A DNA stretch of 50,064 nt from Chthoniobacteraceae bacterium. Lineage in GTDB: Bacteria; Verrucomicrobiota; Verrucomicrobiia; Chthoniobacterales; Chthoniobacteraceae. Position 1 is the first letter of the stretch. Each line of letters begins with the position of its first letter. This document shows, in pieces, positions 2,397-45,285 of this stretch. The DNA lies in assembly GCA_031409655.1 (NCBI GenBank), contig JANNXQ010000047.1, forward strand, positions 1 to 50,064. The letters run 5' to 3'. Below the pieces are notes generated by a model. The model ran no database searches. It saw nothing but the letters and a program-made list of their open reading frames with translations, and was not told where the DNA came from. A program made the translations under genes and the position numbers.

Positions 2397-2562
2397 GATG
2401 GGATTTAAAACGCCGAGACGCAGAGACGGAAAGATCGCAAAGGAAGGGAACAACCTCATTTCCCAGGACGCGCACCCACCGGGTGAACCCATCCGCCGCC
2501 TCGATTCCGCTCTTCCTTTGCGTCCTCTGCGTCTTTGCGTCTCGGCGTTAAAAATCCCCATC
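2397..2562. repeat. MITE-like element with ~50-bp imperfect inverted arms made of 8-9-nt periodic units
   Basis: Left arm GGATTTAAAACGCCGAGACGCAGAGACGGAAAGATCGCAAAGGAAG vs reverse complement of right arm GGATTTTTAACGCCGAGACGCAAAGACGCAGAGGACGCAAAGGAAG. Confidence 0.75.
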
Positions 2563-7141: not shown

Positions 7142-7147
7142 TGGGGA

Positions 7148-7238
7148 AAGGAAGAAGGAGGAAGGAGGAAGTAGGAAGTGATCACCGCGCTTCGCGCGCG
7201 CAGGGATTCTGCCTTCTTACTTCTGCCTTCTGCCTTCA
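7148..7238. repeat. Empty 7-bp periodic inverted-repeat element between nrdR and the next gene
   Basis: AAGGAAG-AAGGAGG-AAGGAGG-AAGTAGG vs (minus) TG-AAGGCAG-AAGGCAG-AAGTAAG-AAGGCAG; central CGCGC-TTC-GCGCG. Confidence 0.7.
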
Positions 7239-7724
7239 TTTGAAGAGCTCCGGTTGCAGCTTGCTGGGCTTTGGCCGGCGTTCCAGTTGTTGGATTTCTT
7301 CGATGAATTCGCCGATGTCCTGAAAGTGCCGATAGACCGATGCGTAGCGCACGTAGGCCACTTCATCGAGCCCGTGCAGGCGGTTCATGACTTTCGCGCC
7401 GATGACGTGCGAGGGGATCTCGCGGTGAAATTCGTTCTCGATTTCGAGGATGATTTCGTCCGCGGCCTTTTCGAGCTTTTCCACCGAGACGGGCCGCTTC
7501 TCGCAGGCCTTGATCATCCCGGAGAGGAGCTTCTGTTTGCTCATGGCTTCGCTGCGGCCATCCCGTTTCGCCACGCGGAGATCGTTGCGTTCGATCTCTT
7601 CGTAGGTGGTGAAGCGATGCGTGCAGGCGGCGCATTCTCGGCGGCGTCGAATCGCCTTCCCGTCTTTGGAAAGGCGGGAGTCGATGACTTTATCCTCAAC
7701 TCCTCCGCATTTGGAGCAATACAT
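7236..7724 (-). CDS. nrdR: Transcriptional repressor NrdR
   Basis: CSKC..KVIDSR..IRRRRECAAC..RFTTYE zinc ribbon; KRDG ATP cone; DEVAYVRYASVY. Confidence 0.97.
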   Translation of the reverse strand: MYCSKCGGVEDKVIDSRLSKDGKAIRRRRECAACTHRFTTYEEIERNDLRVAKRDGRSEAMSKQKLLSGMIKACEKRPVSVEKLEKAADEIILEIENEFHREIPSHVIGAKVMNRLHGLDEVAYVRYASVYRHFQDIGEFIEEIQQLERRPKPSKLQPELFK

Positions 7725-20260: not shown

Positions 20261-21262
20261 CTACTTCACCGTCTCCAGCACCCGCTCAATTACCTTCCCC
20301 ACGCTCACGCCTTCCGCTTCGGCGCGGTAGTTCACCAGCACCCGATGCCGCAGCACTGGACCGGCGAGCGCGGTGATGTCTTCCTTGATCACATGGGCGC
20401 GACCGTGCAGGAGGGCGCGCGCCTTCGCTCCGAGGGTCAGGAATTGCGCGGCCCGCGTGCCGGCGCCCCAACTGACCCAGTCATTGATGAAATCCGGCGA
20501 GCCCGCCTGCTTCGGACGCGTGGTGGCCGCGAGACGCACGCCGTAGCGGACGAGGTCTTCGGCGATCGGCACCTTCTTCACCAGCGCATGGAAGCTCAGC
20601 ACGTCTTCCCCGGTGAAAAGCGGCTCGATCTGCGGCCCCGCAGGTGCCGTGGTCCGCTGGACGACGGTGACCTCGTCCGCCTCCGGCAGATAGTCGATGA
20701 CCACATTAAACATGAAACGATCGAGCTGCGCCTCGGGCAGCGGATAGGTGCCTTCCATCTCGATCGGATTCTGCGTCGCGAGCACGAAGAACGGCTCGGG
20801 TAGCGCGTAGCGGCGACCGCTTGCCGTGACCTGATGCTCCTGCATCGCTTCGAGCAGCGCCGCCTGCGTCTTTGGCGGCGTGCGGTTGATTTCGTCGGCG
20901 AGAATCATGTTGCCGAAGATCGGTCCCGGCGTGAAGACGAGCCCGCGCCCATCCGCGCGGTCTTGGAGGATTTCCACGCCGGTGATGTCCGTGGGCATGA
21001 GGTCTGGCGTGAACTGAATGCGCCGGAACTCGAGGTGAAAAATCTGCGCGATCGATTTTACGAGCAGGGTCTTGGCGAGGCCCGGCGCGCCGGTGATGAG
21101 GCAGTGTCCGCCGGCAAAAAGCGCGATCAGGATTTCCTCGATGACGGCGTGCTGGCCAACGATGGCCTTGCCGAGTTCCTTGAGGATCTGCGCCCGCGCG
21201 AGTTGCAGCTTTTCAAAGGTTTCCTTTTCGGAGTTGGGAATGGGAGGGGGCTGGTTGGTCAT
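20261..21262 (-). CDS. moxR: MoxR-family AAA+ ATPase
   Basis: GAPGLAKT, RIQFTPDLMPTDITG, LADEINRTPPKTQAALLEAMQE, ATQNPIEMEGTYPLPEAQLDRF. Confidence 0.97.
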   Translation of the reverse strand: MTNQPPPIPNSEKETFEKLQLARAQILKELGKAIVGQHAVIEEILIALFAGGHCLITGAPGLAKTLLVKSIAQIFHLEFRRIQFTPDLMPTDITGVEILQDRADGRGLVFTPGPIFGNMILADEINRTPPKTQAALLEAMQEHQVTASGRRYALPEPFFVLATQNPIEMEGTYPLPEAQLDRFMFNVVIDYLPEADEVTVVQRTTAPAGPQIEPLFTGEDVLSFHALVKKVPIAEDLVRYGVRLAATTRPKQAGSPDFINDWVSWGAGTRAAQFLTLGAKARALLHGRAHVIKEDITALAGPVLRHRVLVNYRAEAEGVSVGKVIERVLETVK

Positions 21263-21770
21263 GGCAGAGGAGTCGGGAGTCGGGAGTCAGCTTGCGGCGG
21301 ACCCTTGCCGCCGACTGAGCGGTCCGTCGGATGGCGGAGTGGTCTTGGAAAAATCCAGGAAGAAACCGTCCGGTCTCGCGATCATCGAGCCGAGCATTTT
21401 TCCAATCTCAGTGGACGCAGCAGTGAGAATCCGATGTTCATCCTGGGCGATGTATCCACAGTCTTTCTCGAAGTCCAAGGAACTGTCAGTCTCGCTGTTC
21501 TCGCCGTCACAATCGGTGAGCTTGCTGAGGAAATGCGCCGGATACCGCCGCTTCGCCCAGGCCTCGCGGAGGTTCAAACAAACTGAGCGCGAGGACCGCC
21601 GAATCTGGCTGGTGAGTGCAAAACGCTCTTCGTGAGGAAAGTTTTTGCTGAGGTCGAATACCCGCATGGCGAGGTCGTATGCGCGCTGGTAAACAGTGAG
21701 TTCTTTTTCGGAGCGAACAGGCATGGCAGGCGAAATGGTGATTCCTGACTTCTGACTCCGGACACCTTCT
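21263..21770. mobile_element. Four-helix-bundle cassette bounded by inverted 7-bp repeats (GGAGTCG/CTGACTY)
   Basis: GGAGTCG-GGAGTCG-GGAGTCAG at 21269-21290 and CTGACTT-CTGACTC at 21745-21758; abuts the moxR ATG and DUF4159 TGA; mobility is inferred. Confidence 0.55.
21287..21724 (-). CDS. Four helix bundle protein (23S rRNA IVP/TIGR02436 family)
   Basis: L.VYQRAYDLAMRVF.LSK.FP.EERFALTSQIRRSSRSV..N..EAW.KRRY..HF.SKLTD. Confidence 0.92.
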   Translation of the reverse strand: MPVRSEKELTVYQRAYDLAMRVFDLSKNFPHEERFALTSQIRRSSRSVCLNLREAWAKRRYPAHFLSKLTDCDGENSETDSSLDFEKDCGYIAQDEHRILTAASTEIGKMLGSMIARPDGFFLDFSKTTPPSDGPLSRRQGSAAS

Positions 21771-22649
21771 TCAGTGGGTCATCGCGTAGAAGACGATGTT
21801 GATCCCGAGCGGGTAACTCTTCTTCTCGGAGAATTCGCGGAAGTAGTACTGATTCTCGCCCTCGCGCTCCCAGCCGTCGCCGTTGTCGGTATTGTGGCAG
21901 GCGACGACGCAGAGGCGGCCCTTGTCGTCGTTGATCCCGCGGATGTGGACTTCCATCGCGTCGGGGCGTTCCCAAGTTCGACCGGTGTATTGGCTGTCGG
22001 TGCCGGTGCCGATATTCGGGCATTGCAGGTTCAGGTCTTCGGGCAGTTCGAAGACGGCGTGGAAGATGGGATGGGTGCGCGGGATGTCGAAGAACTGGCG
22101 GTCGGGGAAAACGCGGCTCATTTGCTCCGCGAAATTCTCCCACTCATCCTCACCCCAGAAATCATCGACCATCAGGAACCCACCATTGAGCAGGTAACGG
22201 CGGAGGATCGGCACTTCCTCTTCGGTGAACTCCAGGTCGCCCGGCTCGACGATGTAAATCCACGGATAACGAAAGAGTTCCGGGTCGGTGATCTCAAGCA
22301 CCTTGCCATTCGGGTCCACCTTCATCGAAGTCATCTGCTGGAGGCGGTAGGCGAAGTTCAGGTCGGCATCCGGGTAGTCGATGGCCCAGCGCTCATTGCC
22401 TCTAAAGTAGTACCCATTCGAAGTCCGACGCCCAGTGGCCGAGTAGCGGATGCGGACGAAGGTGAAGACGTCCTTTTCAAACCCCGCTTCGTACTTCCAT
22501 TCGGGAGTCGGCACGGAGTTTTGTCCGGCGCGCGGATTGTCGATGGGGATTTGCTGGCTGCGCGAAGATCGGCTCCGAAATTGCGCGAAGGCTCCGCCGC
22601 CGAGGAGGAGGGCCAAAAGGAGGGCGGTGGCGCGGAGAAGTTTCGTCAT
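21771..22649 (-). CDS. DUF4159 domain protein (secreted)
   Basis: Signal peptide; FTFVRIRY, WAIDYPDADLN, YLLNGGFLMVDDFWG, HNTDNGDGWE, GINIVFYAMTH. Confidence 0.9.
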   Translation of the reverse strand: MTKLLRATALLLALLLGGGAFAQFRSRSSRSQQIPIDNPRAGQNSVPTPEWKYEAGFEKDVFTFVRIRYSATGRRTSNGYYFRGNERWAIDYPDADLNFAYRLQQMTSMKVDPNGKVLEITDPELFRYPWIYIVEPGDLEFTEEEVPILRRYLLNGGFLMVDDFWGEDEWENFAEQMSRVFPDRQFFDIPRTHPIFHAVFELPEDLNLQCPNIGTGTDSQYTGRTWERPDAMEVHIRGINDDKGRLCVVACHNTDNGDGWEREGENQYYFREFSEKKSYPLGINIVFYAMTH

Positions 22650-36601: not shown

Positions 36602-36985
36602 ATGACCATCCCACCGCTCAAATACAACCCTGAGGGGCTCATCCCCGCGATCGTGCAAGACGCCTCCTCGCACCGCGTGCTGATGATGGCGTGGATGAAT
36701 GAAGCCGCGTTCCAGGCCACCCTCGCGACGGGCTTCATGAATTTTTGGAGCCGGTCGCGGCAAAAATTTTGGATCAAAGGCGAGACCAGCGGCCACACCC
36801 AGAAGGTGGTGCGCTGGGCCGTCGATTGCGACGCGGACACGCTGCTCTTTGAAGTCGAGCAGATCGGCGGCGCCTGCCACACCGGCTTTCAGAGCTGCTT
36901 CTTCACGGCCTATGCGCCGGATGGCACGGCGCTGGAGACGACGGAGCGGCGCGTCTTCGATCCGGAGAAAACTTACAGCAAGTAA
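36602..36985 (+). CDS. hisI: Phosphoribosyl-AMP cyclohydrolase
   Basis: [36 protein letters not shown]. Confidence 0.97.
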
Positions 36986-37108
36986 CAAGTAACAATTAGC
37001 ATTTAGCATTTTCGAAGTGAGGCGCTTCGCGCGTCGCAGACGAACCAACCTCCGCGCCGCAGGCGCTTCTCTTCCAAATGCTAAATGCTAAATCTCAAAT
37101 GCTAAATT
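36978..37108. repeat. Empty 7-bp periodic inverted-repeat element between hisI and trpE
   Basis: GCAAGTA-ACAAGTA-ACAATTA-GCATTTA-GCATTTT ... CAAATGC-TAAATGC-TAAATCT-CAAATGC; includes the hisI TAA and trpE ATG. Confidence 0.8.
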
Positions 37109-38601
37109 CCCTTCAACCTTCGCTCGCTGAGTTCCGTGAACTCGCAAAGCGTGGAAATCTGATCCCGGTCTTCGCCGAACTGATCGCGGATGCGGAATCG
37201 CCCGTGTCCGCCTTTCACAAACTCGCCGAGGGGAGCGACTACGCGTTCCTTTTCGAGTCCGTAGAGAAGCACGACCAGGCGGGCCGCTATTCATTCGTCG
37301 GCGTGGATCAACGCGTCGTCTTTGAAAGTCGCGGCACGTCCATCCACATCGTGGAGGATGGCAATGCTCGCGATTTTGTCACGACGCGCGACCCGCTCGC
37401 GGAACTCGAGGAACTGATGCAGCGCTATCGCTATGTCTCCTCACCCGCGCTCGCCGATGCGCGCTTCGCCGGTGGCGCCGTGGGGTTCCTCACTTACGAC
37501 CTCGTCCGCTTTTTCGAACCGACCGTGCCGCCTTCGCCACCCGACGATCTCGGCCTGCCGGAGAGCCTCTTTACGATCACCGAGACGCTGCTCATCTTCG
37601 ATCACCGCACGCGCCGCCTGCGCATCGTGGCGAATGCGCACATCGACGGCGATCCCGAGACCGCCTACGGCCGGGCTGCCGATGCCATCGCCCGGACGAT
37701 TGCGAAACTGAATGAACCCGCGCGCCTGCCAATGCTGCCGATCGCGCCCGCGCCGGAAGTCGGGCCGCCCGTGGGCAACACCACTCGCGAGGAGTACATG
37801 CGCATGGTCTCAGAGGGGCAGGAGTTCATCCGCGCCGGGGATATTTTTCAGTTCGTCCCGTCGCAGCGTTTCGAGACCGACTACACCGGCGACCCGCTGA
37901 CCCTCTACCGCACCCTGCGCTTCGTGAATCCGTCGCCTTACATGTTCTGCATGAAATTCGCGGGCCGCTTTGCGTTAGTTGGGAGTTCGCCCGAGGTGCA
38001 TGTCCGCGCGATCAATGGCCGCATTGAAATCCGCCCCATCGCCGGCACCCGCCTCCGGGGCAAAACGCCCACTGAAGACGACGCGAATGCCGCCGAGTTA
38101 CTCGCCGATCCGAAGGAACGCGCCGAGCACCTCATGCTCGTCGATCTCGCCCGCAACGACGTTGGCCGCGCCAGCGAGTTCGGTTCGGTGAAAGTGACGG
38201 ACTTCATGACCATCGAGAAGTACAGCCACGTCATGCATATCGTCTCCAATGTCGAAGGCCGGCTGCGTCCCGACCTCACCGCTTACGACGTGATGCGGGC
38301 CACCTTCCCCGCTGGCACCGTGAGCGGCAGCCCGAAAGTGCGCGCCCTGCAAATCATCAACGGCTGTGAGAAAAACAAACGCGGCGTCTATAGCGGCGCG
38401 GTTGGTTACTTCGGCTTCGATGGTAACACCGACTCCTGCATCGCGCTGCGCACCGTCGTGCTAAAAGACGGCAAAGCCTACGTGCAAGCCGGCGCCGGAG
38501 TCGTCGCCGACTCCACCCCGGAGGGCGAGTACCAGGAGACCGTCAACAAAGCCATGGGCATGATGTCCGCCATCGCCCGGGCGAAGGCCTGCAGCATTTA
38601 G
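37099..38601 (+). CDS. trpE: Anthranilate synthase component I
   Basis: LFESVE..GRYSF, GDIFQFVPSQR, NPSPYMF, GSSPE, PIAGT, EHLMLVDLARND, PAGTVSGSPK. Confidence 0.96.
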   Translation: MLNSLQPSLAEFRELAKRGNLIPVFAELIADAESPVSAFHKLAEGSDYAFLFESVEKHDQAGRYSFVGVDQRVVFESRGTSIHIVEDGNARDFVTTRDPLAELEELMQRYRYVSSPALADARFAGGAVGFLTYDLVRFFEPTVPPSPPDDLGLPESLFTITETLLIFDHRTRRLRIVANAHIDGDPETAYGRAADAIARTIAKLNEPARLPMLPIAPAPEVGPPVGNTTREEYMRMVSEGQEFIRAGDIFQFVPSQRFETDYTGDPLTLYRTLRFVNPSPYMFCMKFAGRFALVGSSPEVHVRAINGRIEIRPIAGTRLRGKTPTEDDANAAELLADPKERAEHLMLVDLARNDVGRASEFGSVKVTDFMTIEKYSHVMHIVSNVEGRLRPDLTAYDVMRATFPAGTVSGSPKVRALQIINGCEKNKRGVYSGAVGYFGFDGNTDSCIALRTVVLKDGKAYVQAGAGVVADSTPEGEYQETVNKAMGMMSAIARAKACSI

Positions 38602-39055
38602 GATTTAGGATTTAACAATTGGATGTTTGACGCTGCGCGTGATGGACAAGGACGAACTCAAGCTGCGAACGAAAGCCTTTGGGCTTCGTGTGATGAAATT
38701 GGTGCGCGCGATGCCCAAGGACGTGGTGGGGCGTACTTTGGCCGGTCAACTGATTCGGTCCGGAACGTCCGTCGGTGCAAATTACCGATCCGCCTGTCGA
38801 GGCAGATCGAAAGCAGAATGGCTGGCCAAACTCGGGATCTGTCTGGAAGAAGCCGATGAGAGTGCCCACTGGCTGGAGCTCATCATGGAGGACGGAATGC
38901 TCCCGAGGAAACGCGTCGAACCACTCTGGAAGGAAGCCGACGAACTCTGCGCGATCTTCTTCACCGCGATTCAATCCGGGCGCGCGTAGTCCAACGCTTC
39001 CGCGCGAAGCGCCTCGCTTCCAAATGCTAAATGTTAAATCCTAATTCCTAAATGC
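38594..39055. mobile_element. Four-helix-bundle cassette bounded by inverted 7-bp repeats (GGATTTA/TAAATCC)
   Basis: Left GCATTTA-GGATTTA-GGATTTA-ACAATTG; reverse complement of right GCATTTA-GGAATTA-GGATTTA-ACATTTA-GCATTTG; mobility is inferred. Confidence 0.6.
38642..38989 (+). CDS. Four helix bundle protein (TIGR02436 family)
   Basis: LKLRTKAFGLRVMKL..QLIRSGTSVGANYRSACRGRSKAEWLAKLGICLEEADES..WLEL. Confidence 0.93.
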   Translation: MDKDELKLRTKAFGLRVMKLVRAMPKDVVGRTLAGQLIRSGTSVGANYRSACRGRSKAEWLAKLGICLEEADESAHWLELIMEDGMLPRKRVEPLWKEADELCAIFFTAIQSGRA

Positions 39056-39058
39056 CCG

Positions 39059-39622
39059 ATGCTCCTCGTCCTCGATAACTACGATTCCTTCACCTACAAC
39101 CTCGTGCAGTATTTCGGCGAGTTGGGGGCCGAGATTTTGGTGAAGCGAAATGACGAGATCACGCTTGCGGAGATTGCTGCCCTGAAGCCGGAGCGGATCG
39201 TCATTTCACCTGGGCCATGCACGCCGAATGAGGCGGGCATCAGTTGCGAGGTGATCCGCGAGTTCGGGGAGCACACCCCGCTCCTTGGTGTCTGTCTCGG
39301 GCATCAATGCATCGGTCACGTCTTCGGCGGCGACGTGGTGCGGGCGGATCGGCTGATGCATGGGAAGACGTCGCCCATCCTGCACCACGGACAGGGCGTT
39401 TTTGCCGGGCTGCCAAATCCTTTTGAGGCCACGCGCTACCACTCGCTGCTGGTGAAGCGCGACACTTTCCCGGCCGCGCTGGAGATCACGGCGGAGACGG
39501 CGGAAAAGGAAGTGATGGGCCTCCGCCATCGCACCTTCCCGATCCACGGCGTGCAGTTCCATCCCGAGTCGATCCTCACCGTCGAAGGCAAGTCGCTCCT
39601 GCGAAACTTCCTCACACTCTGA
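39059..39622 (+). CDS. trpG: Anthranilate synthase/ADC synthase glutamine amidotransferase
   Basis: [35 protein letters not shown]. Confidence 0.95.
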
Positions 39623-45243: not shown

Positions 45244-45285
45244 AACAGCGAACGTCCAACGTCGAACATGGAACATGGAACGATT
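45244..45285. repeat. Solo array of six 7-bp units
   Basis: AACAGCG-AACGTCC-AACGTCG-AACATGG-AACATGG-AACGATT. Confidence 0.6.

Follow-up and report, generated by a model that had tools for sequence, protein, structure and literature searches.

How does a four-helix-bundle gene come to sit between trpE and trpG, enclosed by inverted arrays of 7-bp units, and why does the neighboring hisI-trpE junction hold such arrays with no gene between them? Both junctions lie on contig JANNXQ010000047.1 of the Chthoniobacteraceae bacterium assembly GCA_031409655.1, whose positions 1 to 50,064 make up the window, the whole stretch of 50,064 nucleotides that we analyzed. A sequence-only reading had described four such sites in the window, two gene-bearing and two empty, and interpreted them as a transposase-less pair of autonomous and nonautonomous elements. 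All four sites are present, with inverted 7-bp arrays and co-oriented flanking genes as described; the sites had been placed correctly, while the arm ends were off by a few bases. The element pair itself is partly supported. Forms with and without the gene have the same clade-specific arms, and movement of the cassette is uncoupled from that of its flanks, but the empty forms lack one common internal sequence and the trpE-trpG cassette is old and site-faithful, not freshly jumping. From the anatomy, covariation, selection, and exchange that we observed, we put at about one in two the probability that protein and repeats work as a pair resembling REP doublets forming hairpins and their REP-associated tyrosine transposases (REPIN-RAYT; REP, repetitive extragenic palindrome), in which a pentamer would recognize its own units on the hairpin and promote their copying via host enzymes.

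To characterize the repeats, we searched the genome of the window (G000), a 95% complete assembly in which we called genes ourselves. The window contains 7 period-7 arrays, compared to 0 to 2 in 20 Markov simulations. Genome-wide, there were 521 period-7 arrays versus 37 to 80 for periods 4, 5, 8, 10, and 11, an approximately tenfold over-representation relative to periods not divisible by three. Among array pairs less than 100 bp apart, 180 of 197 (91%) were inverted complements, compared to 6.7% when pairs were drawn at random. We counted 182 gene-less hairpins, which occur in two arm configurations and fill about 3% of the called junctions: 123 are at co-oriented, 37 at divergent, and 9 at convergent junctions, 11 are inside called genes, and 2 are at contig edges. 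Nine of the 10 TIGR02436 genes in this genome have inverted heptamer arms, in line with the predicted enrichment of period-7 arrays at PF05635 genes, and the tenth has inverted hexamer arms. When we looked for other cargo between matched heptamer arms, we found 10 long pairs, of which 7 enclose a four-helix-bundle gene and 3 look coincidental. The hairpin loops have a median length of 29 nt after trimming and nearly all differ from one another: 18 of 8,128 loop pairs share 11 nt. Loops as remnants of the four-helix-bundle gene were rejected as a candidate, the matches being short and weak. We also rejected the inner motif CGCGCGAAGCGC as a hallmark of the family: of its 24 copies in the genome, 2 fall in the 182 empty hairpins, the motif is confined to one repeat type plus the nrdR loop, and its full pattern occurs in 5 of 121 genomes. 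As separate observations, the 11 hairpins inside called genes are apparently read through in frame, and at L446 worn units lie in the N-terminus of a gene. Hairpins with pentamer units (AGCGG) and long shared inner stems, at C215:3245 and C241:5109 of this genome, belong to a further repeat family of 5 pairs.

Repeat unit and protein clade go together, even between genes at different sites. We examined 122 of 203 TIGR02436 matches, drawn from 61 related genomes, and placed the proteins on a FastTree tree. Inverted flanks were present at 96 of the 122 genes, compared to 2% of mismatched pairs, and 71 genes had clear period-7 arms on both sides. Each clade has arms of its own 6- to 8-base unit, approximately 25 to 40 nt per arm, with a period of 6 or 8 in some clades. 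For the 78 genes with scorable arms, we compared units between gene pairs at different sites. At tree distances below 0.5, 82% of pairs (n = 11) had units at least 6/7 alike; this fraction was 37% at distances of 0.5 to 1 (n = 70) and 1% above 2 (n = 2,408). Unit and period are retained within clades over saturated synonymous divergence. A single genome can hold up to ten clades with different units, and one junction type can hold several clades in different genomes (at least four at neighbor cluster 1/0 and two at trpE).

We also compared repeat abundance with gene content in 37 genomes of the family, which are related to one another and have fragmented assemblies. For the (G/C)AACATC type, all 6 repeat-rich genomes had the cognate gene, compared to 1 of the 26 that were repeat-poor (or 2 with the distant L184 included), and no such gene was among those fetched from 5 genomes with middling counts. 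For the GAGAGTT type, the cognate gene was found in 8 of 14 repeat-rich and 1 of 23 repeat-poor genomes; a backward-pattern control was uninformative for this type, whose pattern is nearly the same when reversed. For two of the three types tested, then, repeat-rich genomes tended to carry the matching clade, a pattern that is indicative among genomes that are themselves related.

Gene and arms pass together from genome to genome at a favored junction, and they sometimes turn up at new ones. The trpE-trpG cassette was found in 3 of 24 relatives of a first sample and at 9 of 21 junctions of a second genus, where the cassettes are dispersed on the trpE tree among clean empty sites. This junction also showed other states: L014 has a hairpin of the same type without a gene, some sites retain remnants with a single arm, and one has a hairpin of a different type. 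Between L465 and L467, trpE is 95% and trpG 96% identical, compared to 67% for the cassette gene, and the alignment of the cassette gene rejects both flank trees (log-likelihood difference of 193 to 231). The nearest relatives of the trpE-trpG protein are Chthoniobacterales records; seven of the nine closest proteins are also encoded at trpE-trpG, and the other two (77% and 68%) are elsewhere. Because of the patchy sites, the L465/L467 swap, and these two close relatives elsewhere, we conclude that this old clade keeps to its site, passes sideways between genomes, and now and then moves elsewhere. The junctions are polymorphic, as the sequence-only reading supposed: relatives have clean empty sites, and the cassettes are not simply vertically conserved. 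In the congener L003, the left arm at trpE-trpG is kept and a different open reading frame (ORF) of about 80 codons replaces the four-helix-bundle gene.

Empty hairpins come and go among congeners. At hisI-trpE, heptamer hairpins were found in 5 of 29 relatives, and among genomes with a trpE-trpG cassette and a visible hisI-trpE junction, 4 of 10 had a hairpin there, always of the neighbor's subtype (judged by eye). After nrdR, 28 of 29 relatives had no hairpin and one congener had another type. Across 16 further empty-hairpin junctions, 48 comparisons by eye gave 33 absences, 7 hairpins of the same or a related type, 7 of another type, and 1 degenerate hairpin. The data did not show a hot-spot effect: of the junctions filled in G000, 4 of 30 had a hairpin in the comparators, versus 6 of 89 among the empty ones (P = 0.27). 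At both overlap junctions seen (nrdR and C127:8164), ATGA is doubled around the insert. The doubling may be a target duplication or merely what survives, as survival of both genes demands it anyway. The DUF4159-moxR cassette was absent from all 8 relatives in which both flanks were seen. In L222 and L223, that junction is occupied by a two-gene pair, which we take to be hicAB-like. A joint of position 38613 to 39002 was considered as an excision product and rejected, because it corresponds to a paralogous empty hairpin at C177:4745-4841; it occurs in all four runs compared (DNA contigs from one study, one of them possibly the source). The excised or circular forms that an element pair had been expected to leave were not seen among the sequencing runs (DNA contigs only).

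These patterns bear on a passive origin, in which hairpins would arise by slippage and fold-back and spread by host recombination, while the gene sits in the loop and has an unrelated job. Exchange at a fixed junction requires homologous flanks only, and some empty sites resemble deletion remnants: the loop of L014 starts like the 5′ end of the four-helix-bundle gene, and L478 has a single arm. Hairpins are also abundant in genomes without an assembled cognate gene, and the Coxiella ORF of this family is decaying and probably untranslated (PMC4990558). Nonetheless, we consider a passive origin quite unlikely, given the bounded arm length, the 91% inverted pairing, the persistence of unit and period within clades, the link between repeat abundance and cognate clade for two of three types, and an unrelated gene family, GxxExxY, with the same build of gene plus empties.

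Arm length is bounded, with a peak of 4 to 6 units per arm and five in the commonest type. Partner arms with 2, 3, 4, 5, 6, 7, and 8 units numbered 11, 13, 24, 50, 17, 0, and 2, a peak that is not geometric. A slippage-derived simple sequence repeat was rejected as an explanation, since the arrays are paired in inverted orientation and peak at these lengths. In the window, three of the four sites (hisI-trpE, trpE-trpG, and nrdR, the last spanning 7147-7239) have five units in both arms, and the second cassette (21263-21766) has about four in each (Table 1). A five-unit arm would match a pentamer, a correspondence that is suggestive only, with other types peaking at 4 or 6.

The units appear to be maintained individually. 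Within a type, the unit combines a fixed core (99% agreement at three positions in GAACATC) with one freely varying position. Unit variants did not match, place by place, between an arm and its partner (10 observed versus 10.5 after shuffling for the commonest type), and the idea that arms are copied from each other was unsupported in all five types compared. There was no sense-strand excess of G-U over A-C, either in empty hairpins (127 versus 118) or in filled cassettes (93 versus 117). Because variants are not mirrored between arms, units seem to be maintained one by one and not via pairing. Such symmetric upkeep seems to fit a protein-read code at the DNA level better than it fits an RNA stem under selection to pair, and the unmirrored variants together with the absence of a G-U excess favor the DNA-level code. 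The purine-rich arm comes first in 101 of 123 cases; we rejected this as a sign of transcription polarity, because an inverted pair reads alike on both strands.

An RNA-level role was weighed on the same evidence. TRAP is an RNA-binding ring, and the four-helix-bundle protein could be a domesticated regulator of that kind, with the hairpins as operators or RNase III sites that tune translation or mRNA processing; new sites would arise rarely by host recombination and then be kept by selection. The arms hug the neighboring codons (median of 7 nt past the stop and 10 nt ahead of the start; n = 123), convergent junctions are under-used (9 of 169 versus 13% expected; P = 0.0005), and a sense ORF follows the four-helix-bundle gene in 91 of 113 loci, compared to 47% of random places. 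RNA stems are predicted to be strong, with fold z scores of −6.7 for hisI-trpE, −3.8 for nrdR, and −4.6 for the trpE-trpG cassette, whose predicted fold is closed by a stem of about 35 bp enclosing the ORF. The fold of the second cassette (21255-21780; z = 0.18) was not notably stable, and an Rfam search of the window returned no match. A translational role was proposed by MacGregor for TAACTGA arrays (PMC4679880), and the stem of the Coxiella intervening sequence (IVS) is cut by RNase III (PMC4990558). However, the sense strand lacks a G-U excess, the sites are mostly unconserved among congeners, and up to ten clades and units per genome, with swapping at one site, fit selfish turnover better, making a regulator unlikely.

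Within host operons, the cassette gene is co-oriented with its neighbors, and the arms often supply the upstream stop and the downstream start; host genes therefore remain intact. The left arm of the hisI-trpE hairpin reads AGCAAGT, AACAAGT, AACAATT, AGCATTT, and AGCATTT, and the reverse complement of this end, claimed to be nearly identical to the sequence at 39001, differs from it by two substitutions and one gap over 33 to 34 nt. The only in-frame ATGs for trpE (37078 and 37099) sit inside the right arm of this hairpin; trpE orthologues in relatives begin at an ATG of their own.

Table 1. Positions of cassettes, empty hairpins, and flanking host genes in the window
Feature	Position	Strand	Remarks
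hisI (host gene)	36602..36985	+	PF01502, NF000768; stop 36983-85 within first two left-arm units
Empty hairpin hisI-trpE, left arm, five heptamers (AGCATTT type)	36977..37011	+	Seen in sequence
Empty hairpin hisI-trpE, inner stem and loop	37012..37075	+	Reverse complement of CGCGCGAAGCGCC motif inside
Empty hairpin hisI-trpE, right arm, five units	37076..37110	+	In-frame trpE ATG at 37078 or 37099
trpE (host gene)	37099..38601	+	TIGR00564 over cutoff; TAG stop 38599-601 within next left arm
trpE-trpG cassette, left arm, five heptamers (AGGATTT/AGCATTT type)	38593..38627	+	
Four-helix-bundle gene, PF05635/TIGR02436, 115 aa	38642..38989	+	Between trpE and trpG
Inner motif CGCGCGAAGCGCCTCGCTTCC, small hairpin	39001..39021	+	Common to hisI-trpE hairpin and relatives
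trpE-trpG cassette, right arm, five units	39022..39056	+	Ends 2 nt before trpG ATG
trpG (host gene)	39059..39622	+	TIGR00566; ATG at 39059
Second cassette, upstream arm (GGAGTCA type)	21739..21766	-	Directly after DUF4159 stop
Second four-helix-bundle gene	21287..21724	-	PF05635; other clade, 25% identical to first
Second cassette, downstream arm	21263..21291	-	Ends at moxR ATG
Empty hairpin after nrdR, upstream arm (GAAGGCA/GAAGGAT type)	7205..7239	-	nrdR stop in first unit
Empty hairpin after nrdR, downstream arm	7147..7181	-	ATGA stop/start overlap, ancestral, on both insert sides
Empty hairpin, 8-base units ACGCAGAG (sister type)	2407..2549	.	Same unit flanks GxxExxY gene on C28

The protein is under selection and has a recognizable fold. 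The trpE-trpG protein matched PF05635 (E = 5e-14) and TIGR02436 (E = 2e-20), the second gene matched PF05635 (E = 1e-28), and both exceeded the curated cutoffs (52.8 and 100.2 bits versus 33.8; 73.3 and 94.3 versus 24). The ratio of nonsynonymous to synonymous divergence (dN/dS) of the trpE-trpG gene was 0.09 to 0.12 against two relatives, and purifying selection on four-helix-bundle genes was evident in the 8 of 14 pairs whose dS was finite (dN/dS of 0.03 to 0.13). The model of the trpE-trpG protein (predicted local distance difference test [pLDDT] of 97) has four long helices and resembles 2RLD and 2GSC, with template-modeling (TM) scores of 0.79 to 0.87, as well as Avd, the accessory protein of diversity-generating retroelements (DGRs), with scores of 0.75 to 0.77. 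The 2RLD entry contains five chains, and a Xanthomonas protein of the family is stated to be a pentamer (PMC4990558); by analogy, we assume that the window protein is pentameric as well.

Given the likeness to Avd, the protein could recruit a reverse transcriptase in trans, which would copy the arm-bounded RNA into DNA for insertion at junctions. In DGRs, it is Avd that places template and primer for the reverse transcriptase (bioRxiv 2023.10.23.563531), and the inserts are located in transcribed operons. Yet the 95%-complete assembly has no match to PF00078 (reverse transcriptase), the Avd model NF033474 scored 37 bits for the second gene (cutoff, 80) and gave no match for the first, and the hairpins show no strand asymmetry. 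We therefore view retro-mobilization as very unlikely. The genome does contain 13 matches to PF01797 (HUH/Y1 transposase), and with the REPIN-like anatomy, a resident Y1 enzyme could move true REPINs in trans, with the four-helix-bundle gene as cargo. This is most improbable: paired heptamer arms were missing near all 13 Y1 genes, one of which has a single array close by; the units lack the palindromic form of REPs; and it is the four-helix-bundle clade that specificity follows.

Two GxxExxY genes of this genome (C84:19404-20130 and C28:11500-12030), which presumably encode a nuclease fold, are flanked by inverted 9- and 8-base arrays. Short inverted pairs with periods of 8 and 9 bases number 21 and 31, with some overlap, and one of them is the window hairpin at 2407-2549. 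Because GxxExxY genes carry their own arms and empties, two unrelated protein families share the gene-plus-empties build. Elsewhere, a GxxExxY gene at L300:1004-1500 is enclosed or flanked by inverted 8/9-base arrays, and in G002 a frameshifted GxxExxY copy lies between two NADH-dehydrogenase-like genes, a place with heptamer hairpins in G000 and G003. A worn arm of the 9-base type lies at 2580-2640, just after the 8-base ACGCAGAG hairpin.

How might such a pair work? In the REPIN-RAYT-like reading, the pentamer would bind cognate units on an extruded hairpin, at about one unit per subunit. The Avd pentamer binds a stem-loop via all five protomers, with bases tucked between protomers (bioRxiv 2023.10.23.563531). 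Binding would hold the unit uniform and promote the copying of arm-bounded pieces to new junctions; cutting and joining would fall to host recombination or repair enzymes or to another partner, most likely at the DNA level. Exchange of whole cassettes at a fixed site could proceed by ordinary homologous recombination in the flanks, and cleavage of the mRNA stem by RNase III would likely be a side effect, as for rRNA IVSs. On this reading, the whole is a two-part selfish element, perhaps partly domesticated.

Several observations weigh against this reading. Mobilization was not observed, and catalytic activity is neither known nor evident for the four-helix-bundle fold. Physical linkage by itself would make arms and gene covary. 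The alignment of trpG also rejects the trpE tree (log-likelihood difference of 64), indicating that the flanks recombine as well. The five-unit peak varies with type and threshold: it is 4 to 5 for GAAGGAT and 5 to 6 for AAACGCC, hexamers are broad, and filled cassettes have a mode of 4. Co-occurrence is mixed for the GAAGGAT type, with 31 matches in G007 and no such gene among those fetched, and 0 to 1 matches in three genomes that have the GAAGGAT clade. The AAACGCC, GAGAGTT, and AGATTTC types are abundant in the genome of the window without an assembled cognate gene, and the two most GAGAGTT-rich genomes lack theirs. In Xanthomonas, finally, conservation of heptamer sites across two species reaches 83%, a seemingly more static picture (PMC4692102).

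The element is real and widespread, and it falls outside the definitions of IVSs, REPINs, DGRs, and MITEs (miniature inverted-repeat transposable elements), while working most like IVSs and REPINs. With rRNA IVSs (Coxiella S23p, PMC4990558; inserts of the candidate phyla radiation [CPR], bioRxiv 2024.02.27.582315), it shares the protein family, ORF-bearing and ORF-less forms, a sporadic distribution, and an ORF in the loop of a terminal stem, about 30 bp there and about 35 bp in the cassette here. The Coxiella IVS also has a 28-bp stem with tandem heptamers at its 5′ end (PMC4990558). Unlike rRNA IVSs, the cassettes are flanked by protein-coding genes, whose stop and start codons the arms overlap; a genome has some 180 empties, and the gene falls into ten clades that differ in their units and is under purifying selection. 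REPIN-RAYT systems similarly have inverted repeat pairs with unique spacers, a common and a rare configuration, hundreds of extragenic copies, and a cognate gene with repeats of its own type on its flanks (PMC3337134). In contrast, the cassette has no HUH/Y1 transposase, its arms are tandem nonpalindromic 6- to 8-mers and not palindromic REPs, its gene moves sideways between genomes, and convergent junctions are avoided. The Avd of DGRs (PDB 4DWL and 8UB7) has the same four-helix-bundle fold in a pentameric ring that binds a stem-loop (PMC10053308); unlike in DGRs, no reverse transcriptase, template, or variable repeat lies beside the gene, and no reverse transcriptase was found in the assembly. 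MITEs are likewise short, gene-less, and numerous, with inverted ends, but they differ from these hairpins, which have no shared internal sequence, no cognate transposase, and no established target duplication of fixed length.

Intergenic heptamer arrays, often in inverted pairs, have been reported as GGGAATC in Xanthomonas (PMC4692102) and TAACTGA in Beggiatoaceae (PMC4679880), with 70 inverted pairs of GGGAATC arrays in Xanthomonas campestris pv. campestris (PMC4692102). Like the arms here, they end just ahead of starts or overlap stops; the authors regarded them as simple repeats, G-quadruplexes, or sites for regulators, with no link to a four-helix-bundle gene in the passages searched. Parts of the picture are thus in print, namely, rRNA IVSs with heptamers (PMC4990558) and paired heptamers in Xanthomonas (PMC4692102). 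We found no description of gene-plus-arms cassettes outside rRNA or of a clade-to-unit code in a literature search that left most subscription papers and supplements outside its reach.

More broadly, we tentatively raise the possibility of a new transposase-free class of mobile DNA, in which oligomeric PF05635 rings and, independently, GxxExxY nucleases would each read their own tandem 6- to 9-base code, at about one unit per subunit, and spread a hairpin, with or without its gene, into stop/start junctions. If so, such elements would be the source of the heptamer excess in many bacterial genomes and of ORF-bearing rRNA IVSs, possibly also the origin of the DGR accessory Avd, and they would amount to a natural collection of orthogonal protein-repeat pairs. 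The bacterial heptamer excess has been noted without explanation (PMC4692102), and the Beggiatoaceae paper likewise states that "no mechanism is evident" (PMC4679880). No function has been assigned to PF05635, a large family, and the clade-to-unit code makes the family and the heptamer excess testable together. The element also rewrites housekeeping starts and stops (both come from arms for trpE), which affects annotation and operon evolution.

Some further observations concern single loci. The hexamer-armed four-helix-bundle genes at C23:6337 of G000 and in L214, two species of the genus, are 98% identical (dS of 0.13); being far closer than other shared genes, the pair reflects either recent transfer or bin contamination. 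Two different cassettes at C66:61121-61441 and C179:4200-4421 of G000 each sit between apparent N- and C-terminal methylase remnants with the middle of the gene absent; from motifs that we take to be those of HsdM, this was presumably a type I methylase gene. In the window, a GAACATC-type arm stands alone and partnerless in a divergent intergenic gap (45250-45283), and at 2140-2295, GGTAGGGTAGGCATCCTGCCC-like palindromes form an inverted pair around a long stem, a REP/REPIN-like arrangement unrelated to the heptamer arms.

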